A DNA stretch of 64,000 bases from assembly GCA_040437565.1 (NCBI GenBank), contig JBDOQK010000011.1:1-64000 (forward strand), written 5' to 3'. Below are positions 382-60,693 of this stretch, piece by piece. A model generated the notes under the pieces. The model was not told the DNA's origin, ran no database searches, and was given only the letters and a program-made list of their open reading frames with translations. This DNA comes from Albugo candida. Taxonomy: Eukaryota. Both the position numbers and the translations under genes were made by a program. Each line of letters starts with the position of its first letter. Positions within the stretch are counted from its first letter, which is position 1.

Positions 382-2276
382 TTATTTGATTATATCCTTG
401 CACTTCTCAGAGTCCGAGCGGTGCCCTGCTTCACCACAAGCTCTATATAAACGTATTCTGGGTTTCTTTGGGTCCCCCATTTCAAATTCAGATAAATTGT
501 GCCGCGTCGATCCATTTTGTTAGCGCAGCCTCCCTTTGAAGCGCGCAATGACTAGCTCTTGCAAAGTTTTTGGGATATGTTGCGAAAGTGTCTGAAGTTC
601 GTCGATTGTCGTGCCTGCTGATGATCTGGTAAGGCCCCAAAGCAGGTGTTCACTTGATCAAGTAACATCGGGGTACTTTCAGCTGGTCGCAACAGAAGAG
701 GACTTAGTTGGTGAGGCTTAGCCAAGTTCCAATGTGGATGGATGTCGCTCATTTGCAGGTTTTGCTTTTGACGCAGGTATTGACGCAGTTTGTTCTTACA
801 GGGTAGACTCCAGACGGTGCGGAGTACTTCATAGCATACATCTTCGTCGTTTGTTTGTGTCTGCCGGGAAACCTTCAACCATTCGTAGATTGTAATCAGT
901 GCAAAATGAGTAATTCTCAAGTTGATATCCCGAAAAATCATTCCTTGAGGCGTTGGCTGTGCATAGTTGCAGATGCTCATTTGTTGACGCTGTCGGGACA
1001 CACCGTGCTCTGCAAGACTATTATCAATAGCTAGGTATAATTCTTCGCAGAACGAAAGAAGGTTGTTCTTGCTAGTTGGAATGTAGCAACAAACATTTCT
1101 TTGTAGGGAATCCATGTTTCGACAATGTGTTCAATCATTACACTTTCTGCACGCAATTCGAAACGTTTCCAGAGTTTATCGAAGAATCCTTCTGTTTTTC
1201 CATAAATGTTTGCCCTCCATTTCTTCATGAAGGCTGTCCATTCTTCTTCTTTTGCAAGGTATGCTCTGCATTTTTTCACAATGTTTTTTTCAATATACCA
1301 TACACATAAAGAATTTGGGAAGTAGTAAAGTGTTTTTCTTGAATACCTGAAATTAGCATCAGCTTGCGACCAACGACAAAACCTTTCGGAGAAGATTCGT
1401 CCCTAAAGATCGATCGAAAGAAGTTTTTCGCTGAAGTGTGTGAGGATTGACTCTCAGTAGTCATGAAAAAAAATGCGACGGAAGATGTTTTATACATTGA
1501 CGTGCACCCAACGATATGCAAACACGGAGGCTTCAAAGCACTTGTCCTGTATGTGGCATCCACCAGAAAAATGCCATTGTGACTACAAGCCATCTCTGTT
1601 GATCTTGGATGGGCAAAGTACAGGTGGGACATTTTGCCCTCAACATTGCTCACTATTGTTTCAACATCAAATTGCAATCTGCAAAATTTCTTTACAAGGG
1701 CATCCATCGGTGTACTGCCATCTAAATTTTTAAAATTTTGACGTAGCAAATGTTGTTCAGATTTTCAGGAAAAACAAATCCACGATCATTCCGCAAACAT
1801 GTTTGAATGCTTCTCGTTGGGACCCCAGCATCATACAATCCAACTATTGTTTTTTCCATTTCTGTTTTGAGTCTAAGGTGAAGAGGATGGGCGCTATTGG
1901 AGGTGGGTGGCATACGGTTATGATCCTCTTCAACCATGTGGAAAGGCCAATGCAGTTCATCCTGTAGGGTCTTTAAGCGGAATGGACGGATGGCAAGTAC
2001 TGTCGAGGAATTTCGTGCTCTAGTCTCTTCCATCAGACCAAGCCGATTGCGGTAAGACCCTCCGCGGTCACATTGGTCATGGACCGTACAGTGCCCGTTA
2101 CGCCGCTTGTAGGATGCTGTTGTCATTACCTCCTAGACTTGGGTGGCAGCAAATTCATTTAATGCCTTTTCCATCGCTTTGCGAGAACTATTGTCGACTC
2201 CAACAAGTTCGGTTGGTGGCTGCATCAGTTTGTTTTGAACATTGACATCAAATTCTTTCGTATATTTCGAATTCAT
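382..2276 (-). pseudogene. MULE/FAR1-like transposase, fragmented by frameshifts and stops
   Basis: ORF pieces 1722-2126, 1276-1749 (LYFAHP...FLVDATYRTS...LHIVGCTS...VAFFFM, MULE domain), 1031-1279 and 552-1115. C-terminal CCHC-like knuckle (RACGEAGHRSDSEKC) near 400-450. Confidence 0.85.
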
Positions 2277-2533: not shown

Positions 2534-3044
2534 GGTTATGAGTCCAAGCCGACTATCGTTCCCACGCGCGCCGAGAACGCTCAAACTACACCAGACAGCC
2601 TCGTACAGGTCGACGCATATCCACCCACCGAGACTGCAGTGGCAGATGCTCGTGAGGGGAGAGGTGTGCCTCTAGTAATGTGAACTCAAAATACTCGAGG
2701 CACTGACGGCCATGCAAGAACGCATAAGTCTCCAGGGGATTCCACATATTAAGAGAGAAGAAGACGAGCGAATGAGGGGCGCTCAAGAAACCGGTGTATT
2801 TCAGTCGGCGTTTGGGAGAAGTTTTGGCTCGTCGCGCNNNNNNNNNNNNNNNNNNNNNNNNNNNNNNNNNNNNNNNNNNNNNNNNNNNNNNNNNNNNNNN
2901 NNNNNNNNNNNNNNNNNNNNNNNNNNNNNNNNNNNNNTGTAGATTGAATACGGACAGGTTACATAGGAAATGCATATGATAAAAGTTAATAACAGTTTCA
3001 CATTTGCACGAAAAAGAAAACGGCAGTGAGGTGTTTTACAGGTT

Positions 3045-6000: not shown

Positions 6001-7570
6001 ATGAAGAGCTCGAAGGCACAAGAATGGAATAAGGCGATGGAAGGAGAAATTTCTGCTTTGATTCGCCTAGGAGTATTCGAAGTCAACAAAAGACCTCGAG
6101 ACAGCAATGCGTTGCACAGCAAGTGCGTTTTCAAGCCGAAGGCAATATTGAGAGATTCAAAGCTCGCCTTGTTGCATTTGGAAATGAGCAAAACTTCGGA
6201 GTAGATTTCTTTCTAACTATTGCGGCGGTCATGGACATATCAACAGTGAAAATTGTGTTGGCTCTGGCGATTATTTGGGGAGTTCATGCTCACCATGGCG
6301 ACGTACCAAACGCATATGGCCAGGCAGACAAAGAAAGTGGGCTGGACATTTTTCTGCATGTACCAGGTGGGGTAGTGTTTACACATCAAGAACTCCAAGA
6401 GTTTGGAGTTAGAAGCCGCAGTGAACTTGTGTTGAAATTGAAGACGACACCATACGGTCTTAAGAAGGCCGGTCGATTATAGAGCAAATTGCGTCATATG
6501 AAACTTACTGAAGCTGGATATGGGCGCTGTATCACGGATATGTTTCTTTATTACAACATTTTTGGCGATAACATCATCGTGGTTGGGATACACGTAGACA
6601 TCGACAAATGCTGATTTGATTCAACATTTCTTCAAGAGTCTCGCGTCCTTGTCCATCAAGCAGCTTGGACCAGTCAGAAAATTTCCTGAAATGCGCATCA
6701 ACACCATCGAGAAAAGCGAATAGGCTCTGGATCAGGAAGAGGCGATCGATGATCTTCTTCGTGATGCGGGGATGAGCTTGGTCAAAATTCCGCGCAAGCC
6801 AATCGTCGATTATAGCGACGAGGTATCCTTGAGTAACGAAGATTTGCTGCTGGTTCATGGGAGCTATGGTCAGCCAACAGTCAAAAGTTTTCAATCTCTC
6901 GTCAGCAGTCTGCTATGGGAGTCACGTTGCACATGACCCGACATCGCTTTCGCTGTTCATAAGGCAACAAGACAAACACATCAGCCAAGTTTTCGCGATT
7001 GAAATCTCGCAAAAAGCATCGTACGTTATCTGAAGGGGAGCAAGACGCTCAAGCTGCACATGGTAGCTGACCCAAGCACTGTTTCTCCGCTGAATTTTGC
7101 GTCATTCAGCGATGCAGATTTTGCATGGGACAAGGCGGATCGCAAGTCGCTGACCGGAGCCGTCGTGATGATGAATGGCTTCCTTGTCAGCTGGACGTGC
7201 AAAAACCAGGGTGGTGTATCGCTGTTCACGATGTAAGCTTTGTTTGTAGCTGCTTCTGACGTGGCAAGAGAGTTTCTTGGTGTCTGCGAGCTGCTGCATG
7301 AGCTGGGATTGGTCATTGTGACCCCGATGCCAATGATGATTGTCAATCAGGCTGCGATCGAGAACCTGGAAGGTGAGTCATCACCTGCAAAAGCACAGCA
7401 CATCGACATAAGTGTCAATGTCGTGTGTTATCAAGCGAGACGTGGGTTTATTGTACCACATTACATACCTTCAGACAAGATGATCGCCGACATATTGGCG
7501 AAGGCGTTCGATTCCCACAAGCTCACCAGTCTGAGCGCACTCGTGAGTTTGCAGTACCCACAACACGGCC
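3045..7570 (+). pseudogene. copia gag-pol polyprotein pseudogene
   Basis: Fragmented ORFs carry a gag zinc knuckle (CYNCNKAGHI), protease, GAG-pre-integrase (HQRMAHLSYDTIERM), integrase (LRTDGGREY), RT and RNase H motifs. Confidence 0.9.
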
Positions 7571-7579
7571 GAGAAGGAG

Positions 7580-7733
7580 TGTTGGAAGATGTCATTTACC
7601 GACCGGTTTGTTTGAAATAGTGTGCGATGGTGTAGGTTGATTGCGGACAGGTTACATAGGAATTGCATATGATAATAGTTAATAACAGTTTCACATTTGC
7701 ACGAAAAAGAAAGGTGCACGGAGGTCTTTTATA
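7580..7733 (+). repeat. 3' LTR of copia element 1
   Basis: TGTTGG...TTTATA, preceded by a polypurine tract. Confidence 0.9.
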
Positions 7734-8009
7734 GTAGTATGTAGACGCAGGGGTCCGTACCCAGCTCAGTTGAGGGTGTACGCCCGTAGTACTTGTATGT
7801 AGACACCGTTCTGTTACTACAGTTTGGTGGTTATCTACTCTATTCTAATCACTAGTATGTAACGCTCTGAAGAGCCCGGTCCAACTCCTGTACAGTTATT
7901 TTCTGGTGTCGTTGCCAGCGGTCTTGACACGTCCATATCTTCATTGAGTAGGTTGATATTTACGTGGAAGAATCTTTGCATCCGCCGAGGGGCCCCACCG
8001 CAGCCCTTT

Positions 8010-8087
8010 TGCCACCGCCGGGATTCGAACCGGTGCACATATGGTCGGAGCACATGTGAACTAACCGCTAAGCCCCACGACGGGGTC
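8010..8087 (-). ncRNA. tRNA-like Pol III head of SINE family B (not a functional tRNA)
   Basis: A-box TGGGGCTTAGCGGTT (8077-8063) and B-box GGTTCGAATCCC (8031-8020) at tRNA spacing, ending ...GGCGGTGGCA. No clean anticodon arm. Confidence 0.8.
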
Positions 8088-8088
8088 G

Positions 8089-8195
8089 AAAATAAAGTGC
8101 GATACTTCTCTATTGATGCGTGGCATCCTTGCGCAGGGGCCATGCTAATCTTTTCTGTATCGTTCCAATTTTTTCGGATGACCACAGAGTGGTTC
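8089..8195 (-). ncRNA. U6: U6 spliceosomal snRNA copy, full length, probably a retropseudogene
   Basis: Minus strand reads GAACCACTCTGTGGTCATCCGAAAAAATTGGAACGATACAGAAAAGATTAGCATGGCCCCTGCGCAAGGATGCCACGCATCAATAGAGAAGTATCGCACTTTATTTT. The canonical U6 core is present, but the ACAGAGA box is mutated to ACAGAAA (8153) and GATGACAC to GATGCCAC (8123). Confidence 0.95.
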
Positions 8196-10331
8196 CTCCG
8201 TACCCAGCTCAGTTGATTACGCACTTGAGAGCACGGACCCCCTGCCGGAGGTCGTTAGTTCGATCCCCGGCAGTGTGGGCAGCGGTTTGAACCCACCTAA
8301 GTAATAAGCTTGGAAATATCTGCCTCCCTAGGTTTGAAGTCAGACTTAAGTGATACTCACACGGTCAGGGGCTCATGATAGGATAAGGAAGGCAGTTGAA
8401 AAATCAGATAAACAGTGTAATGAAATCCTTGACAAAGTAGTATCTAGACGCAGTAATGTAGTCACCCTGTCGATGAATCATGTTGGTTTACAAAAACTAG
8501 CCAATCAGATATGTTTTGTCTGTGGCAATAGTGAAAACGTGTATGGGAATAGCGAAAACGGTCGCTGAATCACACAAATTAGCCCAATCGGAGGTGTTTT
8601 GTGTGTGGCAATAGTCATACTCTTATAGAAAAGGTGGGGGCTAAATAACGACTCCGTTACTAACTATGTGTGTTTTTGCTGGTCTTGTTGGTCATAACAA
8701 CATTACAGATACATAGTAGCTGGATATGCTTAGTTTGAAAAGGCTTGAATAGCGCAGGTGAGAGAGAAGTTAGGACTCAAATAAAGGCGCTTTTCAGTTT
8801 TTTTCGAACGTCAGGAACAATAGATTATGGGTTCAAGCTCATGAAGAATGGCAGAGGAGGTGCTACAACAGATCATTTACTTAACGTGGAGTTCAGCACG
8901 CAATGAATCTGATGAAAGTTTTGCTAAATCACCTCGATATACTTGAAATCCAACATCGAATGTTCAACTGCTAAGCTGCGGAAATCCAACGATATGGAGG
9001 ATTCGAAAGATGTTCTTTTCGTCGCGTCGTCGCTCAATCTTTCAGTCAATTCTTCGAGGTGCACACAAGACTGCTGAAGTTGAGATAATTTTCTAGAGCT
9101 TTTTTTCTCGAAAACAGCTTGCACAACCGGATACAAAATATCTGGAAACGCACGAGTTCAAATGCGAATGTATGGCGACCAATGGATCGTTTCTGTGAAT
9201 TACATGCGTTGTTCATAACGATGCAAGCTTCTGGATCGTAAATCAGCTTGGATGGCCATTTCGTGATAAGTCTAAGACGCCTTCCAGGCGATTACCACAA
9301 TATCGTGACGATCATCGAGAATATCCAAGGGATGGATTCACTTCGTACAAAATAAATATTACGTAGTTATTGGAAATATTGATTCGTGTAGAGAAAAGCG
9401 GAGTGCATTGATAGCGCAAGAAACATGGGAACCTTGTCTGCGTATAGACTGATCATAAAACGTATATTGTTCAGTGGTAGCATACCATGTGGGTATGTTT
9501 AAAGATGAATTTCCGTAATTCATTCCTTGCGAAAACTGATACTTATTTCGGTAGCACAACGAGTACAAGTGTAAGCAAAGGAAAATAGAAGTATGCGAGT
9601 AAAGTTGCCAAATTCGAGACCTATCTGTATCGAGATGTGTTGTATGTACCGTACTGGATCGAAAATTGATGCTACATTTGGCTCCATCGGAACGCTTCTA
9701 CTTGTCGTACTTGTGCTAGTCTTCGAAACAAACGCATAACAAATTGTATAAATTCTGCTGATATCTCACCTTTTGCATGGATCAAAAGAGAAGCTCTAGT
9801 GCTGTGGATGTTCATCATGGCTACCAAATGGTCTGATTGAGAAAGTTGCAGTATCGGATATAAAGAAGGTTTATCATCCTTAAATGCAAGCTCCTTGAAT
9901 GCAAGTCTTTCGAGAATCCAGCATTACAGGGCACTTAAAAGAACAATTATATGCAGGGAACGCCGATGTATGGCATCTTCATATGTATCTATGAGCGATA
10001 TAAAGGTTGGCAATTTGAGTGGATGGGCTGATACTGAATAAGATATCAAATAATGATGATGAAGACAACATCTGGGAATGGTTTTCGTATGGAGAATCAT
10101 CCCTGAAGCTTTTCTGAATTCCGTTATGTAACAGCCAAGAGTCAATTGTTGCTGGAAGTGATAAACAGCGAAGTTATGGGACCTATGCACACCGTATTTC
10201 AGTGTGGTGCACGGCATATAGTCACTTTATTGACGACTATTGCAGATATGTAGTAACTATCCATGCCACACAAAAATCCCATTTTAGCGACGATTTCCTC
10301 AAATCAAGTCTTCGCTGGAGTTATATTTGTA

Positions 10332-11680
10332 CAGTAGCCGACAAAAAGTATACGTTATTTTTCTATAATCCACACCACAAAAAAAAGTGAGAGGACTATC
10401 CAGACCTATTACTTTGTGTTTCCGACATCAAACCATTTGTGAAATATGCAGACACGTTGTTTAATAACTGAGGAGAAAGCTGACATTGTCGGATTTTATT
10501 AGGCAGGCTTGAAACAGCGGGAAATCACTGCCCAAACGGGGTTCACCCAGTCAACCATTTCGACAGTGCTACAGAACTGGCATAGAAGGGGTACGGTGTA
10601 GGGTACCAAGTCAAGAGGAAGACCACCAAAGCTCTCAGGAAGAGACGCAGGTCTATTGGGCGCACTGTGATGCAGAACTGGCGGGCGCGACTAGCAAAAA
10701 TCGCGAACAATGCGAACACTCCGGCATCGCCAGGCACAGTCCGTAGCGCCCTCCATGAAATGGAATTCAAAAGAGCCGCATTGCCGCCAAGAAGCCTTTT
10801 TTGACGGATAAGCAACAGGTTAAGATACTGGAGTTTGCTAGGAAATACAAAAGTTGGACATTAGAGAATTGGAAGAAGGCCATTTGGACCGACGAGCCCA
10901 CCTTTGAGATTGGCAAGAATACTCGTCAGGTTGTTGTGTGGCGTCGCGTGGATGAAAAGTTCAATTTTGAGTGCTTGGTCCCAACATTTAGGAGTGGACG
11001 GTCCTCGGTGATGATCTGGGGTGCTGTTTTTGGTGAAAGGATTCTACAGATGGTCATCATGCCACCCCGACATCGCACTGCCACCGACTTTGTCAATCTG
11101 ATCTATAATGCTGCACTTGGACCATGGTTGGACGACCAGGATGACAAGAAAGACCTAATTCTTATGGAGGATGGCTCGCCAGCCCACCGTAGTAGTGGAG
11201 CAAAGACCTGGCGTGAAATGCGGGCGCTTGCAAAGCTAGAATGGCCTGCCCAAAGTCCTGATCTCAACCCCATCGAGAATCTGTGGAAGAATCTCAAAGA
11301 TGCCGTCCAGAACCGTGACAGGCTAAAAAGCGTAGAAGAAATAGCTACCATACTTAGTGAGGAATACCGCAGGGTATCCCTCGAGATGCTTCGATGCCTA
11401 GTAGAGTCAATGCCAAGGCGAATTGCTGCTGTTCTTGCTGCCAATGGTGGATAAAGTCGCTGGGGAACGCTCCCCAATGGCACGCACAATTTTGACAAAC
11501 ACTGCAATTCCTAAATATAAATACTGTAGCAACGACTTCTAATAGACTTCATTGTCAGCCTTGAGCATTTTTTAGAATTGTTGTGGCTGTTTGATCATCA
11601 AAAAATTGATTCTTTCTCAAGGTTGAAGCGATAATTTGACCGTCATATCAAAAATAACGTAAACTTTTTGTAGGCTACTG
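10332..11680 (+). mobile_element. Tc1/mariner DNA transposon (DD34E)
   Basis: 31-bp TIRs CAGTAGCC(G/T)ACAAAAAGT(A/T)TACGTTATTTTT at 10332-10362 and 11650-11680. TA target duplication at 10330-10331 and 11681-11682. Confidence 0.95.
10446..11454 (+). pseudogene. Tc1-type transposase with a disrupted N-terminal HTH region
   Basis: GRPPK motif, WTDE, MEDGSPAH and WPAQSPDLNPIE, with 34 residues between D and E. In-frame stops and a frameshift lie upstream of 10801. Confidence 0.9.
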
Positions 11681-14249
11681 TACGGACAACCGTCGTATCA
11701 ATCAAGGTTACGCAAATATTTGCAAAGAAACTGGAATACGACATCAAACAACCCTTTCATGTTCTCATCGTAAGACGGCTTTTCTGAAACAATAACCAAG
11801 ACAGTAATAGAACGGGAAGGGTCCATTTTTTACCCTATACATTTCGAAAAAATATGGTGGGGCGAAGCTATAAATACAGCAGTCTATATCACGAATCATT
11901 TACCAAATGATGCAAATCCGGAGAAGACCCCATTTCTTATATGTTTTGGACCACCACCAATTGTTACAGGATGAGAAAGCTGGTGACACTGGATACGCTC
12001 ATCTATAAAGAGTAAGGTGCAAGAAGCCGGAGAAGAAGCGTTTTGATACATATTTTGTTGTAGAAGGGTATATGTGTGTAGAATATGGATTTCAACGTGT
12101 GAAGATAAAGTCGCCCTTTATTTAAATAAACATCAAAGATACAATATCTGTACGTGAAATTAACTACGGAAACGACATTCTATCACAGTATGTGAATATC
12201 GACGATGATCAAGAAAGAGTAATCATGATGCAACCCGTCGAATACGTCGTGGAGCCGATTGATGTTGACGCTGATGGGTTTTATCCTCCCACCATAAAGA
12301 GGGGGAGTATACTGGATCAAATAGATGTACGATATTCGTTCAATTGGCCACGACATCCTTCCTTGCGGTGCAAAATTTACATTGTCTACTTTCCCATGAG
12401 ACTACGGAAGCAATCGTACCGCTTACAATTGAAACAACTAAGAGATACCGAATAAAGTATGATCAAGTGAATGCAGCCATTTAAATCCTGAGACGTACGA
12501 GGAAGCTTTGCAAATTGGTGAAGCTTCACGTGTAAAGACGCAATAGCATCAGAGTTATATTAGTTTGTTGAGAACGAGACATGAGAAACAGAAGCTCGTC
12601 CGAACGATCAAAAAATGATCGGGTGCAAATGGGTTTCTGCAATCAAGCGAGACGAACACCGTTTAATTCGGCGATATAAGGCACTGCTTGTTGCGCAAGA
12701 ATTATGACAAACAGCTGGTCGAATATTAGGAAACATGCGCTATACTTACATGCAATAATCTGATTTTTCATTAATTCCATATTATGTGTGTTCAGCTTGG
12801 GTACGAGATTCAACAGTATGATTTGGATACTGCATTTAACAATGAAGATTTGGTAGAATATGTTTACATGTCGCCACCGATTGCAAAATCAAATCAGTTC
12901 AATTATGCAAACTGCAATGAAGTTTGGATAGAAACAAGCATCATCAGTATGGTACAGGCCATCTCCAGAGTTTTCTTACCGCTGAAGTTCAAGCACTTTA
13001 CATATTCGACGCGTACGTATTTGTTCACCGTGGAAAGGCAAATGTTTTGTAGATCGCCCTCTGTTTGGATGAGATATTGGTGGCAGCAAAACCAATTGAT
13101 ATGATTGAAGGTGTTAGCAAATAGCTAGTCCAAAATTCACAATGAGGAGACTGGGCGTGGCGAAGTTCATTTCGGTTATGGGATTACCGTACGACATCAA
13201 AATAAAAGTGATGCACTTGTCACAGGAAGATGATTTTAAACAAATGGTTGATAATATTGGCCAAGAAAAGTCATCCCCTGTTCACAACCCAACTAGACTA
13301 ATGCAGGGATTCGAGTCGTTAGATATCTGAAGACAATTGTGGAACCTGACTTGATATTTAGCGGTCGCAATTGATAACTTATGGTCGAAATCTAGAGCGA
13401 TTCAGACTGAGAAGGCTGTCGAGATGAAGAACGTGCAACATCAGGCATTAAATTTATGATAAATAGCACTTTGTGGGTAAATCAGTCCCCATGACATGAA
13501 AGACTTGCGCTTAGAAGCTTAATGCATGGCTACGTCCATGAGTTTAGGAGACCTATCCAATTGATTGTGGATATTTGAAGCTCAATCGCTCTTGCAACGA
13601 ACGATGTTTATCAGAGTAGAGTCGAGCGAAGGCACCATTTCATTTGCCATCACATCAAATTTGGAATTATCAAATTTAACTGTACCTCAACAAACCTCTC
13701 ACTAGCCGAATTCCGACAGAGTTAATATCGACCTAACACTTGGAACATTTCTCATTACGTAAAGGCGAATCCGGTAAAATTTGTGTCGGGGTGCTGGAAA
13801 TCAAGAGCATACCGATAAACAGTGTGTTAGGTTGTAAAGGCCTAGTGAAACCTACCTTTTAAACATGCTTTCCATATTTCCCGAATGCCAAAAAAAATGG
13901 GGTTTAGTCGCGCAAAGAGATTCTCCTAGAGGTCTTTCAACTAGCTTTGGATCGCTACTCTAGCGATGTGAGGCCCCATTTTGCGGTATATTAACCTTCT
14001 ATTTTATTTTGTTCTGGCCCTTACCATTCCATCGTCTACTTTGGGGGTTCAATTCCGCAATTTATGCATACGATTACTCATTATATGCATAAATTCCGCT
14101 CCTGCTAATATCTAAATGCTCCTTGTTTCCCATTTCAGCCACAAAGCATCCTCCCTTTACAACGCTGCGGTTCTTTGTATCAAAACTTATTTTTGAATGT
14201 CGTGGATCTTAGTTGGAGTCAGCCATTAAAACCTTCATTGACTAATGGT

Positions 14250-15350
14250 TACAGGATTATCTCGAGCTGTGCAAGGGTACATATTCAGGATCTTGAGCAT
14301 CGAAACGGAATAGCAACTTTGCTTAGACTTTCTCCGCACAAGTAATAAAATTTCAGCGAAATTTGAACTCCACTAGATAATATCCTAGAGCTTTGATTTA
14401 CAATGGTGTAATCGTTCGGTGTTGCGGAACTACTTAAGTGGATCGGATCTGAATTTGAGGTTGCGATGATCCGTCTACAAATCATGACTCTAACACCTGT
14501 GTAGGAGGTAAACAGCAGAATCTTGAGTCACCACAGCCAAATAACGATGGACAAATGTCTTTGTGATCCGTGGAAGTCCGCGAGAAGCGATCCAAATGGC
14601 GAATTAGCCGATGTGTGATACGTGCGTCTACATAGATTCCCCAAGCGTTAGTGCACACGCAGAAAATCGTGTCACGCGGGTGTCTCTGCAGCAATGATAT
14701 ACTTATCACATTATTGCAGATCCTAAAATCCAAAGAGGTTTCAGATCAGCCCACCTTTATTTCCGACGATTCAGTCAATGGTCTTTGTGTAACCATCACC
14801 CTACTATTGCAATTTTCTACATACACCTCACCAATGTATGAACTATGGCACCATATCGAGGTATAAACGTTAGCATCTAGCTCGAAGCGCAAATCAATTG
14901 CTTCAGTCCATGTACATACCCGATCTCTGTATTGGGAAGAAGAATCAAAGCATTTATTCGTTCCGATTTGCGCCAAACGCCGTTTTCGGACACACTTTTG
15001 TTACATCAGAGCATGTTCCTCTTCCAGAAATTCTACGCTGGTGGACTAAATTCTAGGGTGCTTTTACTTCATCTATCTTCATATACCCTCCGAATTTGTT
15101 AATCAAGACTACTTCTGTACGGTATAAGATTCGCTTAAATCTGGTATGTACAGACATTTTTCAATAAGCGAAACTGTAACTTCTGTCCACCAGCACGCTG
15201 GTATGATTTTATATTCCTTCATTGTGAAACAGAGAAGCTCTTCTGAGTAAATCACTAAAACAAATCGCCAGCAAACTTTGAACAACTCGAGCAAGAAAAT
15301 TACACGCGAAATTCTGCATGTGCTCTATTACGAATTCCAGCAACTACATT
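14250..15350 (-). mobile_element. Possible LINE ORF2 C-terminal relic
   Basis: Degenerate peptides (IPACWW; RDTIFCVCTNAWGIY, resembling a zf-RVT region). No intact motif. Confidence 0.3.
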
Positions 15351-15390
15351 ATCCACATTGCACTCTTGGTAGGCTCTGTACGCTAGGTTC

Positions 15391-18300
15391 TGTTGGATAT
15401 TCAACATAAGGGATGTGCAGATAAGATTCGGTAGTTTGATAAGGCTTAAAAAAGTTTAACTTTTAAGTGAACTAAGGACCTAATCTATGTACTTTCGAAT
15501 TGAAGCTCCTTGGGTGTCGTTGTTTACGGATCATCTACAGGTTATGAGCCCAAGCGCAGCAGCAGTTCGAGCAATGACGTTCTCAGGGACGACAACTACT
15601 TTTACTGGAAGTTCAACGCGTGCATGAGACTGGCAAGAAAGGGGATGCTGGACCATATCGACGGACCTGTAAACGTCAAGAGCGAGGACGATACAGCGGT
15701 GGTAGTCTGGAGAGCGAACGACTTAAAGGCCTTTTCCACCTTGTCGATGACGCTCAGCACTCAATATCAGTCAATGATCCGAAATACGACATCGACGAGG
15801 CAGCTTTGGGATACATTAAAGGAGTTTTTTGTTTGGAAAAGTTTACACAATCGAGTGCAAGTTCGACGTCAGCTGCACGACTTCAAGATGGGAAGAGGGA
15901 GCAGCTTGATGGAACATATGATGAAGTTCGATGAACTAGCGATGAGCATGTCGTCTATCGGAGACGTGATGGATGAGCAGGAAATGCTCGTGGTGCTTTT
16001 GGGTAGTCTGTCTGAAGACTATAAACACATCACACGAATCCTGGAAAAAATGCCTGAAATCGACTTGATGAGTGCGCGTGAAATTCTTCGCCGAGAGTGG
16101 GACAATATGCAGAAAAGGAATCAAATGAGCTTACACTGAAGGCAACAAGAGACGTGTTTTCGAAGATAAGACCCAACAATGCTCGAATCAACAGGAGCGC
16201 GTTTCATGGGAAATGTTCAACTGTGGAAAGCGTGGACACAGACAAGCCGAATGTTTTCAACGAAGCAAAGAAAAAAGGACTTTCAAGCCGAAACGATCAT
16301 GCGTTTATGGCAATTACTGCCCAAAAGAAGAATGACTGGTTTTTGGACAGCGTTGCGAGCAGTCATATGAGCTATGACAAGTCAGAATTTGTAGCACTGA
16401 TGGATCTGGAAAGTCCAATCATAATATCAATCGCGAATGGAGCTACAGTCGACGCTGTTAGTACTGGTTCAATACCGGTTAGTCTCAGCAATGGTGAACA
16501 TGTCACCATTCATGACGTGTTGTACGTTCCAAAATTGGACCCACGGCTACTATCAATCCCCGCATTAGTGGCCCGTGGACTTAATGTTTCTTTCGACAAC
16601 AACTGGTGCGAGATTAAGTCAGAGACCGAGACCATCATACGTATAAAGCGGAGTGGGAAGATGTACAAGCTGCATACACTCCCAAGGACACCAACCAAAA
16701 CGGCATCGCCAGCATCTTACAGCGATGACAGTCAAGACTGGGAAAGATGGCATGCTCGTTTGGGTCATCTTCCATTGGATTAACTTGAACAAACGCAAAA
16801 ATGTTCCACCGGAGTCCGAGTGAAAGAACATTCGATTCACGATGCCGATGACAAAGATGAGGTTTGCGCGGGTTGTGCAAAGGTAAAATCATCGGTGAGA
16901 CCATTTCTCAAGGCAAAGGGCAATGATTTGAAGACAACGGAAGTGTTACAAATAGTTCACAGTGATCTCATGGGACCGATGAAAACAACATCAGCAGGTG
17001 GTTCTCGATATACATTGACGTTTATCGACGATTACTCACGATTGGTCAAAGTTTACTCTCTGCGGACAAAATCGAAAGTGTTCGATTATTTCATACAATA
17101 CAAAGCCATGATGGAACGCCAAACCAACAACAGGATCAATTGTAGCCGTACGGAATGCGGTACAGAGTTTGTGAACAGGCAGTTCGAGAAAGATTGTAGA
17201 CGAAACGGGATAGTCCATCAGACAGCTGCCCCGTTCTCGCCGCAACAGAATGGTTTGGCGGAACGAATGAACCGCACACTCATGGAAAGAGCTCGTGCAA
17301 TGATGGAGCACAAGAATGTGGCAAAGGAGTGGTCGGCAGAAGCTTTCAATACCGCAGCATACATCACAAATCGCGTTGCAAACAGTCTTCGACCATACTC
17401 CACACCAATGGAAACTTGTTTCAAAGAAAAGCCAGTTTTCAGTCACCTCCGCGTTTTTGGATCTACTGGCTTTGCACATATCGACGAGCCGAAGCGATCT
17501 AAAGTAGACGCGAAGGCCTACTCATGCTTATTCTTGGGATGTGCCGACGACTCGAAAGCGTACCGGGTATTCAGCATATCGAACAAGCGAGTGGAGAGAT
17601 CCCTAAGTATTCTCCTAACAGAAGTAAATCAGACCAAGTAGGTTCAAGTCGTTATCCAAAACCTTAAAATGATTCCAAGACGGAACTCATTTGATGATGA
17701 TCATCGTACTCCATGTGTGCGCATCGAGTCTCAGGAACCTCAATTTATGGAGACTGATCAAGCTGGCCAGCCATACCAAAATCACCAACTTACAGTACCT
17801 GGACGATCCGACACACACTTGGTACCTCTGGATTACGACGCTCCCGGCCCTTCCTCCATGAAGGTGGATGAAGGTTATGGTCGAGAACATATCCCAGTAC
17901 CTCCTAGCCAGGTTACTACTCAATGCCAACATCCAGAAAACGATATTGTGTCGAGAGGGAGAATCGAGATGGATGACTTTTCACACAATCACGACACTTG
18001 TATCGCCCCCGACGTCACCGAGCATTACCAGCAAGTGGGTTCAGCGACGCTATTAGTGCATGTGCAGATGAAAATTAGCTCGATCATGATGAAGTCAATC
18101 GAGAGTCAAAGTGAGTTCGGCTTATGTCTGAGTAAGCAAACGCAGCCATTAAAAGCCCTACAACATATCAGGAAGCTTTGCAAAGCGGTGAAGCTGTCCA
18201 GTGGAAAGATGCGATGGCATCAGAGTTCAAGTCATTGGATGGAAGGAAGACATGGAAAAGAGTAGATCGTCCAAACGACCAAAAGGTGATCAGGTGTAAA

Positions 18301-20042
18301 TGGGTGTTTGCAATCAAGCGAGACGAATATGGTGCAATTCAGAGGTATAAGGCCCTACTGGTTGCGCATGGATTTCAACAAACAGCTAGAGTCGACTAAA
18401 AGGACACGTACGCTCCGGTTGCAAGCACTGATTCGATCAGAGTATCCTCAGTGTGTGTACAACTTGGTTACGACATTCACCAGTATGATGTGGACACAGT
18501 ATTTCTTAATGGATATTTGGAAGAAGATGTGTACATGTGGCCACCACTAGGATTGATAATAAAGCCGGTTCAAGTGTGCAAACTGCAACAAAGTTTATAT
18601 GGATTGAAGAAGGCATCATCAGTATGGTACAGGACCATCTCTAAATTTTTCTTGGAGCTTGGGTTCAAGCAATGCACATCCGACTCATGTATTTTCGTTC
18701 TCCCTGAACAAATTTCGTGTATATCGCACTCTATGGGGATAAAAACATGTTGATTTCAGCAACATGAATTGATCTGATAGAAGTCATCAGCAAGTAACTT
18801 TCCCGAATATTCACAATGAAGAGATTGGGTGTGGCAAAGTACATTTTGGGTATGTAATTATCGTACGACAACAAAATGAAAGTGATGCACTTGTCACAGA
18901 AGGCTGGTATGAAACGAATGGTTGAGGAATTCGGCCAAGAAAAGTCAGCTCCTGTCAACAATCCAACTTGCACAAGTCAAAAAATGACAAAGACAGGGAG
19001 TGAAGATGAACACCTGAAGAACAGGCCATATCGTTCGTTTATTGGATATCCACTATATATCGCAATGAGCACCAGACCAGACGTAGCATTTGCATTATGT
19101 GAATCAAGTCGATTCTTGGAGAATCCGTGTATGGCCCATTGGAATGCAGAGATTCGAGTCCTCAGATACTTGAAGACAGCTCCGGAACTTGGTTTGATAT
19201 TTACCGGTGAAATGGAGAATTGATGGTCAAAGCCTACAGCGATTCAGATTAGTAAGGCAGTTGCGATGATCGACGTTGAAATCAGGCATTATGGCCATGA
19301 TAAATGGATCTCCAGTTGCATACTTATCCCGACTGCAAAAGAGCATTGCGCTTAGCTCAGCTGAAGCTAAATACATGGCAATGTCCGTGTGCGTGCAAGA
19401 AATTATATGGGTGAAGCAGCTATTGCGAGAAATGGAACAACAGTTCGACACGCCTATCCAACGTTTTGTGGATAATCAGAGCGTAATCGCAATTGCAACA
19501 AACGATGGTTATCAGAGTCGAGCGAAACATATCGACATCAGGCATCATTTCATTCGGCAGCACATCAAATCCGGAATTATCCGATTGGACTACATTCCGA
19601 CGAAACTGCAACTAGCTGACTTCTTGACAAAGTCAATATCGACAAAACATTTCGAACACCTCAGTAAGTCAAGTGGAATCCGTTTAAGTATGTTGAGGGG
19701 GAGTGTTGGATATTCAACATAACGGATGTGCAGATAAGATGCGGTAGCTTGTAAAGGCTNNNNNNNNNNNNNNNNNNNNNNNNNNNNNNNNNNNNNNNNN
19801 NNNNNNNNNNNNNNNNNNNNNNNNNNNNNNNNNNNNNNNNNNNNNNNNNNNNNNNNNNNTAAGTCAAGTGGAATCCGTTTAAGTATGTTGAGGGGGAGTG
19901 TTGGATATTCAACATAACGGATGTGCAGATAAGATGCGGTAGCTTGTAAAGGCTGAGATTAACTATCAAGTGAACTAAGAACCTAATATATGTAATTCCG
20001 AATTTAAGCTCCCTGGGTATTGTTGGTTACAGATCATCTACA
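15391..20042 (+). mobile_element. Ty1/copia LTR retrotransposon, full-length, pseudogenised
   Basis: LTRs TGTTGG...CTACA at 15391-15539 and 19899-20042 (the 3' LTR start also appears at 19704, before the gap). Perfect TSD GGTTC at 15386-15390 and 20043-20047. PBS GGTTATGAGCCCA, PPT GAGGGGGAG. Confidence 0.97.
15544..19700 (+). pseudogene. copia gag-pol pseudogene
   Basis: UBN2-type gag, WFLDSVASSHM protease, WHARLGH, integrase (HSDLMGP, FIDDYSR, QQNGLAERMNRT), RT (CKWVF, LYGLKKA) and RNase H (KHIDIRHHF, LADFLTK), with frameshifts and stops. Confidence 0.92.
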
Positions 20043-34639: not shown

Positions 34640-36365
34640 ATGTCGTCCGTCGCTGTTGGGAATGCTGAACATGTTTCAGAGGATTCAAGAAAACAAGCAG
34701 AATTGCTCAAGCATGAAGGCAATCAATCTCTTCAAGAATACAAATATCGAAACGCTGTCGAATTATACACAGCTGCAATAGAAGTCTATCCAACTGCGAT
34801 ATATTATGCTAACCGTGCAGCAGCTCATATGAAAACAGAGAGCTATGGTCTTGCCATAAAGGATGCTACCGATGCGATAACTATGGATCCAAACTACGTG
34901 AAAGGTTAGCAACACTGTTGGATAATACTGCGAAAGTGTAAAATTTATTCTGTCCAAAACGCTTTCTAGCTTATTATCGTCGCGGATCAGCTGAACTAGC
35001 CCTGGGGCACTACAAGGCCGCTTTGAAAAACTTTCGACTTGTTGTGAAGATGAAGCCTCAAGATAAAGATGCCAGAATGAAGTATAAGTTATGCGACAAA
35101 TTGGTTAAAGAAGCCGCCTTTGCAGCAGCCATTCAGTCAGAGCGTAATTTACCTATATCAGAAACTGTTGATGTGGACTCAATCGGTGATTTTTCTTTTC
35201 TTGAAAACTGATAGTTAATGATCCTTGTCTGATTCCTATTTTACTAACAGTGATCGACTCTTCTTACGATGGTCCCAGGCTTTCTGATGACGTTAAATCG
35301 ACTTCGCCTGATTTTATATCCGATCTATGGTTCGGTTAAACGTGGAAAACTCCTCCATCGAAAATATGTCATCCTTATTTTGCTAGAAATGAAAAAATTG
35401 TTTTCAAGTCTTCCATCGTTATTAAGAATCACACTCCCCGACGCAAATGATGCACATATCACCGTGTGTGGTGACACGCATGGACAATTTTACGATGTCT
35501 GCAATATTTTTCACCTGAATGGAATGCCGAGCGGAGATAATCCATATTTATTCAATGGAGATTTCGTTGACCGTGGTTCTTTCTCGTTTGAGGTGGTCAT
35601 GACACTATTCGCAATGAAATTAATATATCCTAAACACGTCCACTTATTGCGTGGTAATCATGAGTCAAAGAATATGAACAAAATCTATGGGTTCGAAGGT
35701 GAAATCAAGCACAAATACGATGAAACAGTCATGCTATTATTCACCGAAGTTTTTAATTGGCTTCCACTTGCGGCAGTACTGGATAATCGTGTGCTGGTTG
35801 TGCATGGGGGATTATTTGGCGAAGATGATGTTTCACTAGAAGACATTGAAAAAATTGAGCGTAATCGCGAGCCGCCAGAAAGTGGGTACATGAGTGACCT
35901 TATGTGGAGTGATCCGCAACCTTTTGCCGGACGTGGACCAAGCAAGCGTGGTATCGGGCTCTCTTTTGGTCCGGACATTACCCACGCTTTTTTAGAGTAC
36001 AATGATCTCGGTATGTTTTCGTGATGCGCGGTAGATGACGTTGGAGTTTACTCATCCCGTGCTGTGCTTCCAGATTTACTTGTAAGATCCCATGAGGTCA
36101 AAGACGAAGGTTATCTCGTAGAACATGATGGTAAATGTATCACGGTGTTTAGTGCTCCCAATTATTGCGATCAGATGGGTAACAAAGGCGCATTTATTCG
36201 CTTTGAGAAGAACATGGTGCCAATTTTCACACAATTCACCGCCGTTGTACGTCCCATTTCCTACTAATGGTTGCTACTTTGTCCTTGACATACTTTCTGT
36301 GTCAGGAACATCCCCCTATACGGCCAATGGCTTATGCCGCCAATATGGGTGGCATGTTTGGATAG
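34640..36365 (+). CDS. PP5: Serine/threonine protein phosphatase 5 (TPR + PPP catalytic domain), about 5 exons
   Basis: N-terminal TPRs, then GDTHGQ, GDFVDRG, RGNHE and SAPNY. GT-AG introns such as 34905-34969. Ends ...[13 protein letters not shown] local 2-nt loss at ~35321-35340 is absent from the duplicate copy. Confidence 0.95.
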
Positions 36366-36671
36366 TAGCTCTGTACACAGGTTGACAGTAGACTAATTAT
36401 ACAATGCAATAGGACTCGTGCATCGCAGAAGTCTTAGTGAGGTTGTCTCCTCTATTTGAGGCAGTACGTTACCTGCCGTTGAACATCTCATTCAGCCACT
36501 CATGCAAACTAGTGTGTGCGATAATCAGGAACCTCTTTCGCGTTCGACACTTCGAGCATGTGTCAGTGACCNNNNNNNNNNNNNNNNNNNNNNNNNNNNN
36601 NNNNNNNNNNNNNNNNNNNNNNNNNNNNNNNNNNNNNNNNNNNNNNNNNNNNNNNNNNNNNNNNNNNNNNN

Positions 36672-37781
36672 CTCTTCTTACGATGGTCCCAGGCTTTCTG
36701 ATGACGTTAAATCGACTTCGCCTGATTTTATATCCGAACTGATGGATCGCTTCAAACGTGGAAAACTCCTCCATCGAAAATATGTCATCCTTATTTTGCT
36801 AGAAATGAAAAAATTGTTTTCAAGTCTTCCATCGTTATTAAGAATCACACTCCCCGACGCAAATGATGCACATATCACCGTGTGTGGTGACACGCATGGA
36901 CAATTTTACGATGTCTGCAATATTTTTCACCTGAATGGAATGCCGAGCGGAGATAATCCATATTTATTCAATGGAGATTTCGTTGACCGTGGTTCTTTCT
37001 CGTTTGAGGTGGTCATGACACTATTCGCAATGAAATTAATATATCCTAAACACGTCCACTTATTGCGTGGTAATCATGAGTCAAAGAATATGAACAAAAT
37101 CTATGGGTTCGAAGGTGAAATCAAGCACAAATACGATGAAACAGTCATGCTATTATTCACCGAAGTTTTTAATTGGCTTCCACTTGCGGCAGTACTGGAT
37201 AATCGTGTGCTGGTTGTGCATGGGGGATTATTTGGCGAAGATGATGTTTCACTAGAAGACATTGAAAAAATTGAGCGTAATCGCGAGCCGCCAGAAAGTG
37301 GGTACATGAGTGACCTTATGTGGAGTGATCCGCAACCTTTTGCCGGACGTGGACCAAGCAAGCGTGGTATCGGGCTCTCTTTTGGTCCGGACATTACCCA
37401 CGCTTTTTTAGAGTACAATGATCTCGGTATGTTTTCGTGATGCGCGGTAGATGACGTTGGAGTTTACTCATCCCGTGCTGTGCTTCCAGATTTACTTGTA
37501 AGATCCCATGAGGTCAAAGACGAAGGTTATCTCGTAGAACATGATGGTAAATGTATCACGGTGTTTAGTGCTCCCAATTATTGCGATCAGATGGGTAACA
37601 AAGGCGCATTTATTCGCTTTGAGAAGAACATGGTGCCAATTTTCACACAATTCACCGCCGTTGTACGTCCCATTTCCTACTAATGGTTGCTACTTTGTCC
37701 TTGACATACTTTCTGTGTCAGGAACATCCCCCTATACGGCCAATGGCTTATGCCGCCAATATGGGTGGCATGTTTGGATAG
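36672..37781 (+). other. Duplicate of the PP5 3' part across an assembly gap (probable artefact)
   Basis: Near-identical to 35257-36365 and starts at the gap edge. Confidence 0.85.
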
Positions 37782-48400: not shown

Positions 48401-50971
48401 TCAGACCTCGATGGTTGAGTTACTTTGCAGACTGCATCGTGATGTATCTTCCATGCTGACTTCAAGCAACTTTTCAAGCTGTAAATTTTTGCTGTGTCCT
48501 TGAGTAATTCCTTGTGAAGAGATTCGTATGCTGCAGTATATGATACTTGCCCACTCCATACACTCTTCTTGATTTGATGCCTGTAGCACCAACTTATCAT
48601 TTGGAGATCGGACAATCACAATACAATGCTGACGATCCGGTACATTGATCAGATTCATGTAGCATCCATACAATGTAAAAGCCTTGCGTGGTTTAAGAGC
48701 GCTGACATCCATGCTCGAATCGCGATTAGCTTTCTGAGTTTTCTTGTAGTATCGAATTTCCCCATTTGAGACCACGATCACACGCTCTTTCCAATTCTCC
48801 AATCCTGAGCGCGATTTCTTGATCATTGATCCCATCTTGAATGGAGGGGCTATGAAGTACAGCGTCAATGGGAAGTGAGAGGTCTGCAGTAAATCCCTGG
48901 ATTCTACATACGTAAATGATAAAATATTTTTGTCATTCACACCCACTAGTTGACTACCGATTGGTATACTTTTTCCAGGACAAGCTGTTACCACTACTGC
49001 TTCTGTTTTCCGTTCCATGACTATATCGATCTCACTTGATTTGCTGTATGTGGCATAAAAACTAATCATTGGAATCTCTTCTGCACGTTTGACCACTAGA
49101 ACCAACAGGATTTGCTCTAGTGGTCAAACGTGCAGAAGAGATTCCAATGATTAGTTTTTATGCCACATACAGCAAATCAAGTGAGATCGATATAGTCATG
49201 GAACGGAAAACAGAAGCAGTAGTGGTAACAGCTTGTCCTGGAAAAAGTATACCAATCGGTAGTCAACTAGTGGGTGTGAATGACAAAAATATTTTATCAT
49301 TTACGTATGTAGAATCCAGGGATTTACTGCAGACCTCTCACTTCCCATTGACGCTGTACTTCNNNNNNNNNNNNNNNNNNNNNNNNNNNNNNNNNNNNNN
49401 NNNNNNNNNNNNNNNNNNNNNNNNNNNNNNNNNNNNNNNNNNNNNNNNNNNNNNNNNNNNNNGAAGTACAGCGTCAATGGGAAGTGAGAGGTCTGCAGTA
49501 AATCCCTGGATTCTACATACGTAAATGATAAAATATTTTTGTCATTCACACCCACTAGTTGACTACCGATTGGTATACTTTTTCCAGGACAAGCTGTTAC
49601 CACTACTGCTTCTGTTTTCCGTTCCATGACTATATCGATCTCACTTGATTTGCTGTATGTGGCATAAAAACTAATCATTGGAATCTCTTCTGCACGTTTG
49701 ACCACTAGAGCAAATCCTGTTGGTTCTTCAATAGTTTTTTGCCTTCCAAACCCACATTGTGCTCGTTGCAACGCTTCTATCCATTCATGCATTTCAGTCT
49801 CCGTTTCAGCATTCAAATGCAATTCTTTTGTGTGGCTCATATTACTTATCACAAAATAATTCTTTCTTCCATCTGGACAGCATGTCATACCAGGACTCAC
49901 AACAGTTCCATTTAAAGCTATAGCACCTCTCATAAGCTTTCTGTTTTCTGTAAAATACTGCAGTTGGCCATTTTCAACCCGAAAAAAGCGTTTCTTCCAA
50001 TTCTTTTTCAGATGACCGCGTTTCCATAAGAAACCATCTCTTCGTATCAATTCATCAGATTGGTGGAGGTTTTGCCAATGATGGGGAGTGTCTTTATCTC
50101 GGATAAGATAAGGAACTGTATTTCGTGATAGGTCGATTTGTTCCAGTGTACCAACACCAACGGATTTTAAGCCCGCAATCCATTGATTCATTACCTTTCT
50201 CGACGGAGTAGAGAACAAGGTTGCTCGAACTGAGGTCGAAAGTAAAAACACATGTCTTTTTTCAGTCAAATTCAATTGAACAGAGACTTGTGCACCTGAA
50301 TCATGGCCAACATTGAGCGTTCCTTTGAGCTTCTTCATCCCTTCATCAACGTAGAAAGACAAAACTCCATCATCTCGGAGTACAAAATATTGCCAATTCC
50401 ATGCTTTCAACTGTTGACCGCATTTTTCCATCCAACCTTTCATGACAGTACACATATCATATTCGCGAGCTGTATGTATCTGTGCAATAACAGAATCCGA
50501 CATTGAGGATCTCAGATCATCTAAAGAAAGATTATCATCTGCACTAGAGGTATTTAAAGTGTCTTGTGATATATGGGGAGGTAATTTTCCATGATCAATG
50601 AGTGATTTGACAGTCAAATTACTGCATTCTTCATCGGTTTGATAACGTGAACGTCGTACAGAATCGGAATCTATTATATCCTGGTGGTGTAGCCATTGAA
50701 CCCTTTCTATACTGTCGATATATCTCTTTCGTTGCTTCTTCTTCATCTCATCTGCGTTTACACTCGTAGAGGTGGTATTGGATGGATCACTTACAGTTGA
50801 ATGAAAATCATCAAGATCTATGTCATCCCTCGATACAAAAGAGCTACTGATAATCGAAGAATTACATCTTCTTCTAGTATTTGTGCTTGTTGTTGAAGGC
50901 TGTACTTGTCGTTGAATGCCCGTGTTTTGCTGTGTATTCGCAGTCGAACGAAACCAGCTTTTAATCGTCAT
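48401..50971 (-). CDS. Multi-PH-domain protein (PH-PH-PDZ-like-PH), broken by a gap and a fold-back artefact
   Basis: PH motifs KGWMEKCG..WNWQYFVL, DGFLWKRGH..KNWKKRFF and GSMIKKSR...NWKER. PDZ-like IPIGSQLVGVND. The two ORFs overlap identically around 48854-49100 and 49463-49709. Confidence 0.85.
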
Positions 50972-58642: not shown

Positions 58643-58886
58643 GGGTCCGTGACCAGCTCAGTCGGTCAAGCACTTGAGCGCACGGACCCCCTGCCGGAGG
58701 TTGTTAGTTCGATCCCCGGCAGTGTGGGCAGCGGTTTGAGCCCACCCAAGCAATAAGCTTGGAAAATATCTGCCTCCCTAGGTTTGTAGTCAGACTTAAG
58801 TGATATTCACACGGTCAGGGGCTCATGACAGGATAAGTAAGGTAGTTAAAGAACCAGATTAACAGTGTAATGAAGTCCTTGACAAA
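58643..58886 (+). mobile_element. tRNA-derived SINE family A, intact copy (~240 bp)
   Basis: A-box AGCTCAGTCGG and B-box AGTTCGATCCC. Direct repeat CAAAGAACCCAAAGTACAGA at 58623-58642 and 58883-58902 (TSD of 16-20 bp). Colinear with 7751-8436. Confidence 0.92.
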
Positions 58887-59273
58887 GAACCCAAAGTACA
58901 GATCGGAAGCCTGTATCATGTTCATCATCTCTGTGGTCATCTCAGTTGAAGGTGTCTATATTACTAGAGTTAGATTAACTGACTTCTTTAGTTGCCTAGG
59001 CTATCTTAAATAACATATATACATATGAAAAACGTTTCGTGAAATACCTGTGAGAGATGATAAGATGTCTTCTCGTTGATAAGCTCGTATGGCAGTAGCA
59101 TCAGCACCCTTGATACGAGACTGTGTCCAGCCTGTAAATGCTGTAAAGCTGTAAAGTTGTAAAGTTGTAAAAANNNNNNNNNNNNNNNNNNNNNNNNNNN
59201 NNNNNNNNNNNNNNNNNNNNNNNNNNNNNNNNNNNNNNNNNNNNNNNNNNNNNNNNNNNNNNNNNNNNNNNNN

Positions 59274-59690: not shown

Positions 59691-60690
59691 CTCTGTGGTC
59701 ATCTCAACTACGACACTATCGAGCGGATAGCTACGGTGCCGGACAGAGGAATCGAGATTGATGCCCCGCCGGTGACCGAATGCATTACGCGGTAGGAGAG
59801 CATGAAAAAAAAGAACAAAAAGTCTCAAAAAGATACCTGTATGAATTCACCAAAAAAATGGAGCGAATTGNNNNNNNNNNNNNNNNNNNNNNNNNNNNNN
59901 NNNNNNNNNNNNNNNNNNNNNNNNNNNNNNNNNNNNNNNNNNNNNNNNNNNNNNNNNNNNNNNNNNNNNNCATGAGGGTTGCCACGTCACTACAAGTGGA
60001 CGCTAGCACCCTTGTTTGTGTCGATATGTCGACTTGGACCATTGTTTTCGAGAGGAAAGAGTTAAAAAAAAATAATTTTTCGAGTTCTTTTTGTACTAAA
60101 TTGGCGGGTTACATAGTAGCCGGCAAATTGAGAAGTCTCTGTGGTCATCTCAACTACGACACTATCGAGCGGATAGCTACGGTGCCGGACAGAGGAATCG
60201 AGATTGATGCCCCGCCGGTGACCGAATGCATTACGCGGTAGGAGAGCATGAAAAAAAAGAACAAAAAGTCTCAAAAAGATACCTGTATGAATTCACCAAA
60301 AAAATGGAGCGAATTGGTGGCGTCACATGCGGTTATTCGAAGGGTCCAATTACGCCACAAGACTGAATTGGAAATCGATAGTTGGTCTGACCGAGACCAA
60401 AACTGAAGCAGCTAAAAAGTTTCAAGATTTTTTCGATAACTTTTAATTCTATCAAATACACTGATGGCGAAGAAGAGTACAGGAATGTCGACCTTTTCAA
60501 GCAGGAGTAAGAAGAATTAACGATGCCGAAAAATCAAGTCTTGAGTGGAAAACTGAATGAATGCATAGGACAGTCATGAAGCTGGCGTGGTCTGTGATAT
60601 TTGGAAGCTCTATAGAGTTATTCTTTTGGGGAGATGCTGCGCGTATATCTCTAATACAAGCCCATCTACTTGGGGTCCACCCCATCTTCG
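59691..60690 (+). mobile_element. copia integrase relic of the element-1 type (partly duplicated across a gap)
   Basis: GHLNYDTIERIA, RIGGV...KGPITP, TKTEAAKKF and FWGDAA fragments resemble 4780-5450. Confidence 0.7.
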
Positions 60691-60693
60691 TTA

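Follow-up and report, generated by a model that had tools for sequence, protein, structure and literature searches.

U6 is the small RNA most often found in the chimeric retrocopies of vertebrates, and the mechanism by which it is joined to other RNAs is debated between template switching and RtcB ligation to the cyclic-phosphate end of U6. In oomycetes, the infSINE families of Phytophthora infestans are reportedly tRNA-derived short interspersed nuclear elements (SINEs). The locus described here lies in a stretch of 64,000 nucleotides (nt) of Albugo candida DNA (assembly GCA_040437565.1, contig JBDOQK010000011.1, positions 1 to 64,000 of the forward strand), referred to below as the window. 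It carries, on the minus strand, a unit of 423 bp in which a full-length U6 small nuclear RNA (snRNA) copy is joined to a tRNA-like SINE segment. No description of a U6-containing chimera or SINE in oomycetes was found in the open-access literature searched.

In the available text of Doucet et al. (PMC4476161), U6 is reported joined to L1 in mammals, to L2 and the SINE Mon-1 in platypus, and in lizard to three clades of long interspersed nuclear elements (LINEs) and in six AnolisSINE2 chimeras; switching to U6 was concluded to be general for elements without long terminal repeats (non-LTR elements). An earlier note on this DNA, made from its sequence alone, had named U6/L1 and U6/Alu chimeras of mammals as precedents, a list that was incomplete in that the lizard (six AnolisSINE2) and platypus (Mon-1) U6/SINE chimeras have also been published, as the same part of PMC4476161 records. 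Moldovan et al. (PMC6789731), in the portion available, describe ligation by RtcB of the 2',3'-cyclic phosphate end of U6 to an RNA with a 5'-OH before retroposition takes place. The fungus Magnaporthe grisea contains chimeras ascribed to template switching, MINE (WEIRD/MGL) and a tripartite WEIRD/Mg-SINE/MGL element, with direct repeats of 10-20 bp (PMC2104539, available sections). Finally, SINEU are crocodilian SINEs with U1/U2 heads, which are multi-copy and form subfamilies and for whose head template switching was proposed; within the accessible part of that source (PMC4494074), U1/U2 are the only snRNAs reported as heads of SINE families.

All copy counts given below are counts within the 64-kb window, which was searched by self-comparison, blastn-short and nhmmer --max. 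The composite unit occupies 7774-8196 exactly and is enclosed by the direct repeat TCCGTACCCAGCTCAGTTGA, a target-site duplication (TSD) identical at 20 of 20 positions. Read along the minus strand, the order is the 20-mer (8216-8197), GG, U6, a short spacer, the tRNA-like segment, a linker of 52 nt, a body of 185 nt and again the 20-mer (7773-7754); about 236 bp of further sequence lie beyond the tRNA-like segment within the 423 bp. The parts of the unit, together with the second copy of its body, are as follows.

7754-7773, no strand: TSD of the composite, copy on the 3' side relative to the minus-strand insert, 20/20 match to 8197-8216
7774-7958, minus strand: SINE body and 3' end, recurring once in the window
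7959-8010, minus strand: linker between head and body, one copy in the window (blastn-short and nhmmer return self-matches only)
8011-8083, minus strand: degenerate tRNA-like head, called by ARAGORN as tRNA-Arg with anticodon CCG
8084-8088, minus strand: U6/head junction of 3-5 nt (CGACC), placed from the sequence and the ARAGORN start at 8083
8089-8196, minus strand: full-length U6 snRNA copy, from Rfam RF00026 and the sequence
8197-8216, no strand: TSD of the composite, copy on the 5' side, 20/20 match to 7754-7773
60695-60885, minus strand: second copy of the body, the only independent one in the window, sharing the 3' ~190 nt

The U6, the tRNA-like head, the body and the TSD proposed in the earlier note are all present, with coordinates that agree to within a few bases, and its perfect 20-bp TSD around 423 bp was found again in full. 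U6 occurs once, head plus linker once, the body twice, and so does SINE B, the element that the unit interrupts. Neither blastn-short nor nhmmer --max returned an additional copy of the U6 3' end, head, linker, body or SINE B in the window, and the composite has no terminal inverted repeats. Exact-pattern scans gave 0 matches for the U6 3' end in metagenome contigs, a collection that probably does not contain this organism and is silent on copy number. They likewise gave 0 matches for a 23-mer of the body in metagenome and prokaryote genome contigs and for a 22-mer of SINE B in viral contigs, collections from which the organism is probably absent and which do not inform copy number. A search among sequencing runs listed 24, the best of which contains 0.50 of the words sampled, and none of those listed is an RNA run.

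The one-unit insertion is demonstrated by the element on either side of it. The sequence 8197-8437 recurs at 58646-58887 with 91% identity in the self-comparison of the window, and this plus-strand element is termed SINE B. It begins with GGGTCCGT, possesses two strong hairpins and a B-box-like AGTTCGATCCCC, and has a tailless end (...GACAAAG). Its parts and its sister copy are as follows.

7733-7750, no strand: left TSD of SINE B itself, 17/18 identical to 8436-8453
7751-7773, plus strand: first 23 nt of SINE B (5' head, with A-box-like AGCTCAGTTGA), aligning to the start of the copy at 58643 and adjoining the TSD of SINE B itself
8217-8435, plus strand: remainder of SINE B, 91-93% identical to 58670-58885 (nhmmer E 2e-90)
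8436-8453, no strand: right TSD of SINE B itself, 18 bp, within the unrelated repeat D
58643-58887, plus strand: uninterrupted SINE B paralogue with its own 15-bp TSD AACCCAAAGTACAGA, used as the empty-site reference

The empty site is thus represented by a paralogue and not by the orthologous locus. When the two halves of SINE B are rejoined by coordinates, they form an element of 242 nt that is identical to the 245-nt sister at 221 of 245 columns; around the join, 46 of 53 columns are identical and no gap is needed. Of the 20 positions that were duplicated, 4 are not the same in the two SINE B copies (this locus and that at 58643), and the 20/20 repeat around the composite is therefore a local duplication rather than a family resemblance. 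The 18-bp TSD of SINE B (17/18) lies outside the composite, and its right-hand copy is target sequence because it is part of repeat D, the other copy of which (189-358) runs through it. SINE B was inserted first, and the 423-bp unit then entered its head and duplicated 20 bp. The 20-bp repeat is not a matter of chance, since it splits a recognisable repeat whose halves rejoin gap-free. The claim of the earlier note that the parts were retroposed as one unit is borne out by the same comparison, in which the removal of 443 bp restores SINE B at the join without a gap.

SINE B can be described as a family of ~242-245 bp with two copies that are ~90% identical, a 5' hairpin and TSDs of 15-18 bp. 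The fold of the head of the sister copy (58643-58887) has a z-score of -2.97. Neither ARAGORN nor Rfam recognises SINE B as a tRNA, and beside the locus Rfam at E <= 1 returned just a chance-level miRNA match within SINE B.

The U6 portion is the sole gathering-level Rfam match in the 64 kb. Its match to RF00026, at 8194-8091 on the minus strand, scores 90.1 bits against a gathering score of 44 (E 9.4e-22) and covers positions 1-105 of the 105 in the model, and the check with this model proposed in the earlier note accordingly recovered the whole U6. Two extra T extend the 3' T-run to 8089, giving the end T3-A-T4, and GG at 8196-8195 precedes the Rfam match; the GG is tentatively taken as belonging to U6, where it could lengthen the 5' stem. 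The copy runs from the 5' stem-loop through ACAGAAA to T3-A-T4. The ACAGAGA box is essentially invariant in U6, and the change to ACAGAAA reported in the earlier note is seen in the Rfam alignment, where the model has ACAGAGA, so that the intact box of a functional gene is missing. Nor is there a native promoter region, as would be expected of a functional gene: immediately upstream of U6 are the TSD and antisense SINE B, which means that the native U6 upstream region did not come along. This U6 copy is probably inert, because its ACAGAGA box is altered and it carried no native promoter with it.

A spacer of 3-7 nt separates the T-run of U6 from the tRNA-like segment, which has the same orientation. 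The CGACC of the junction may represent the start of the SINE transcript, or else it may be untemplated. The head carries a good B-box-like motif, GGTTCGAATCC, which sits ~165 nt downstream of the U6 start. The fold of the head is no more stable than that of shuffled sequence (z-score -0.37), and the tRNA-like part lacks a CCA end, continuing directly into the linker. The segment 8011-8083 appears to be a degenerate tRNA-like element, as is often seen in SINE heads, rather than a tRNA gene, and probably represents the RNA polymerase III (Pol III) promoter part of the SINE. The resemblance of the head to a tRNA is weak, and weaker than the earlier note supposed. The tRNA-headed SINE of that note stands in part: the ARAGORN call agrees with it and the Rfam tRNA model does not, and the head is joined to the body at one locus only.

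The body has no A-tail and ends in ...GGGCGTACACCC; there is no T4 run in it, nor anywhere else inside the SINE part of the composite. Between 7774-~7961 and 60695-60885 the identity is 84-88% (nhmmer E 6e-67), and the recurrence of the body that the earlier note had placed near 60694-60876 is thereby recovered with slightly shifted limits. The second copy is without U6 and tRNA-like head and gives no Rfam match at E <= 1, and a TSD around 60695-60885 was looked for and none was detectable. The body family therefore comprises two copies, and its nature as a retroposon family is an interpretation of these. An apparent third copy at 61415-61605 was rejected as an assembly duplicate, as 60589-61208 equals 61309-61928 at 100% across a gap of 100 N. 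The 3' flank of the second copy (60672-60695) is similar to the initial 24 nt of SINE B, to a degree that 14 of 38,920 random 24-mers of the window also reach; nhmmer found no remainder of SINE B beside it. As a lead only, drawn from two copies, this flank might reflect a target preference for B-type heads or an RNA tail antisense to B heads.

A candidate interpretation in which the 20-mer is the common head of two plus-strand SINEs lying beside genuine U6 and tRNA genes was also tried and rejected. Its origin was a BLAST match of the body that ran through the 20-mer (7750-7958 against 60672-60877). It was discarded because the TSD of SINE B brackets the whole composite, because a SINE B starting at 8197 would begin three bases late and without its own 5' TSD, and because the 20-mers are identical at 20/20 positions as against 16/20 between the true SINE B copies.

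The locus is best explained, and probably so, as a chimeric retrocopy that was dead on arrival, formed when U6 was joined to the RNA of a tRNA-like SINE and inserted by machinery of the LINE type. A full-length U6 with its T-run is at the 5' side, the retroposon partner is fused to it in the same orientation, and a single TSD encloses both, as shown against the empty site. The 3' U-run of a mature full-length U6 would have become connected with the 5' end of the SINE RNA, a Pol III transcript. This could have happened by template switching, in which a LINE reverse transcriptase completes the SINE RNA and jumps onto the 3' end of U6, or by ligation of the two RNAs ahead of reverse transcription. 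Target-primed reverse transcription, with nicks staggered by 20 bp, would then have placed the single cDNA in the 5' head of SINE B, an older plus-strand element lying in a transposon-rich stretch. The TSDs seen here (15, 18 and 20 bp), with no terminal inverted repeats, fit integration of the LINE type and not that by an integrase or a DNA transposase. Between the two ways of joining, template switching is favoured, though not decided, because the join coincides with the beginning predicted for the tRNA-like segment or lies no more than 5 nt from it, which fits a reverse transcriptase that had reached the 5' end of the SINE RNA.

Several observations weigh against this explanation. Head and linker are known at one locus, the sole other body copy being without them, so that a full-length SINE is an assumption and the unit could be tripartite. 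The Rfam tRNA model stays below gathering on the head in the scan of the window and has no match at E <= 1 over 7740-8112. No LINE-type reverse transcriptase or AP-endonuclease is present in the 50 open reading frames (ORFs) of the window that were scanned, in which Copia-type, MULE and DDE_3 were the only transposon domains detected, and the presumed partner is thus unseen. A read-through from U6 into a downstream SINE could also account for the join. A Pol III primary transcript should bear a 5' triphosphate; RtcB-type ligation needs a 5'-OH, as set out in the available part of PMC6789731, so the 5' triphosphate of the SINE RNA would need prior processing.

Pol III normally terminates at a T4 run, and yeast SNR6 uses a downstream B box. 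The earlier note had left two options, a one-off chimera and a propagating family of U6-headed composite SINEs, the first of which fits the window while the second finds no support there. In such a family, a master copy would transcribe U6 and SINE together through T3-A-T4, perhaps by means of the downstream B box. The unit is indeed 5'-complete with a young-looking 20/20 TSD, its SINE part has no internal T4 and could be spanned by a Pol III transcript, a good B-box-like motif is available ~165 nt downstream of the U6 start, and snRNA-headed SINEs do exist for U1/U2 (PMC4494074, available part). The window, however, has one U6 and one head, with neither at the sole other body copy; the T4 run should normally have stopped Pol III; and an exact search for the U6 3' pattern gave 0 matches among the metagenome contigs, where the organism may be absent. 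According to the parts of PMC4476161 available, moreover, the U6 promoter is upstream in most eukaryotes and is lost on retroposition, and the published U6 chimeras are independent events and not families. Such a family is accordingly regarded as unlikely. Bolder still would be a living U6-headed SINE lineage in the white-rust oomycetes, combining a leaky T3-A-T4 and a downstream B box with homing into the A-box region of a second SINE, either by a sequence-specific endonuclease of the partner or by pairing of the 3' tail with the B head; the sole hint of homing is the B-head-like 24-mer beside the second body copy, and this idea is held to be a long shot.

The join could also have existed before retroposition, if a SINE lay just behind a genuine U6 gene and Pol III overran the terminator, so that one RNA was retroposed with neither switch nor ligation. 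The U-run interrupted as T3-A-T4, whose final T stretch is only four and could be leaky, the common orientation of U6 and SINE and the very short spacer would suit this course of events, but it requires an earlier SINE landing within 3-7 nt of the U6 terminator, and with one U6 in 64 kb there is no source locus in the window. Switching or ligation is, furthermore, reported to yield just such an end-to-end junction between two complete Pol III-type units (PMC4476161 and PMC6789731, as far as their available parts go), and read-through seems improbable. The SINE part may itself be compound, with U6 followed by a separate tRNA-like RNA (8088-~7959) and the 5'-truncated 3' end of a SINE or LINE (7958-7774), after two template jumps. 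Homology to the other body copy ends at ~7960, where the single-copy linker and head begin, and double template switches have been published (PMC2104539, available sections). Against two jumps, the tRNA-like part has no CCA and passes straight into the linker, which is SINE-like rather than like a mature tRNA, and 5' truncation, which is common in LINE-mediated copies, may be all that sets the second body copy apart, two copies being too few to decide. A tripartite origin is considered quite unlikely. An assembly artefact or a DNA-level rearrangement that placed U6 beside a repeat would, finally, draw on the draft quality of the assembly and its gaps. The nearest N runs (2838-2937 and 19760-19859) are nevertheless thousands of bases from the locus, and a known repeat that is split at a single point by a perfect 20-bp duplication, and is whole again without a gap once the insert is removed, is not what a misjoin would produce; this origin is very improbable indeed.

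The chimeric retrocopy remains the preferred explanation, and the rest of the window provides its setting. There are 14 runs of 100 N (for example 2838-2937, 36572-36671 and 61209-61308), and at 13 of these 14 the sequence that precedes the gap recurs behind it at 99.6-100% identity over 40-1316 bp, while the remaining gap (49363-49462) is flanked by an inverted repeat. The repeats across gaps are unmerged contig overlaps, and they account for false duplicates such as the second PP5-like phosphatase ORF (35269-36024 / 36502-37440) and the body copy at 61415-61605. Transposons abound in the first 20 kb, where Copia-type gag, integrase and RVT_2 domains occur together with MULE and a DDE_3 transposase, and the stretches at 12.5-13.5 kb and 18.1-19.3 kb are 74-77% alike. 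The SINE B insertion is directly bordered by two more repeat families, both unclassified (87-89% identity), and the locus is a repeat nest. The transposon remains and the flanking repeats are as follows.

1279-1764 (minus strand), 6033-6479 (plus strand), 10759-11451 (plus strand) and 12470-19291: transposon remains, comprising a MULE transposase domain, RVT_2 fragments, DDE_3 and Copia-type gag, integrase and reverse transcriptase
7582-7731, 2382-2531 and 2938-3038: first flanking repeat family
8445-8617 and 189-358 (inverted): second flanking repeat family

A gene-dense housekeeping block extends over 31666-57185 and encodes adenosine deaminase-like, class I/II aminotransferase, PP5-type phosphatase and phospholipase D-like proteins, as well as PH-domain, histidine phosphatase, GT90 and flavin monooxygenase-like proteins. 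Among named relatives, the best match to the adenosine deaminase-like ORF comes from Albugo laibachii (73% identity), with other oomycetes at ~45%. The source is accordingly a white-rust-like oomycete, and the oomycete assignment of the earlier note stands.

With a clean U6/SINE chimera inside a 20-bp TSD in an oomycete, the phenomenon would reach as far as the stramenopiles and take in a partner that would not be L1-like, as the SINEs here are tailless. This would suggest that the special retroposition behaviour of the U6 3' end is old and general. The chimera would also mark recent activity of the LINE type and, in this genome, two tailless SINEs that had not been described. No effect on the organism is expected from a single dead copy. 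What is new is the stramenopile host, the tailless tRNA-like SINE partner and the very clean proof provided by the nested SINE, the architecture itself having already been published.

The U6/SINE and U6/LINE chimeras of vertebrates share with the present unit a U6 at the 5' side that ends in a T-run, fusion in the same orientation, a single TSD around the whole and the loss of the native U6 promoter. They differ in that the host here is an oomycete and the example is single, and in that the partner is a seemingly complete, tailless, tRNA-like SINE, whereas in U6/L1 it is a 5'-truncated L1. The TSD of 20 bp is longer than most of those around U6/L2 in platypus, which are 1-9 bp in the available text of PMC4476161. 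Compared with SINEU, there is again an snRNA at the 5' end of a short retroposon, but the heads of SINEU are U1/U2, from Pol II genes, and form families, while the head here is U6, from a Pol III gene, with a tRNA-like head behind it and a single copy in the window. SINE B and the 3' partner of U6 fit the general picture of short, tRNA-related, non-autonomous elements given of infSINE, to which they are likened by description and not by sequence, although both are unrecognised as tRNA by Rfam. The chimeras of Magnaporthe grisea also come from a non-animal microbial plant pathogen and resemble this unit in the direct fusion of an RNA to a retroposon, in repeats of 10-20 bp and in a SINE as a possible part; their 5' partner, however, is WEIRD, stated in the available sections of PMC2104539 not to be U6, whereas in Albugo candida it is U6.

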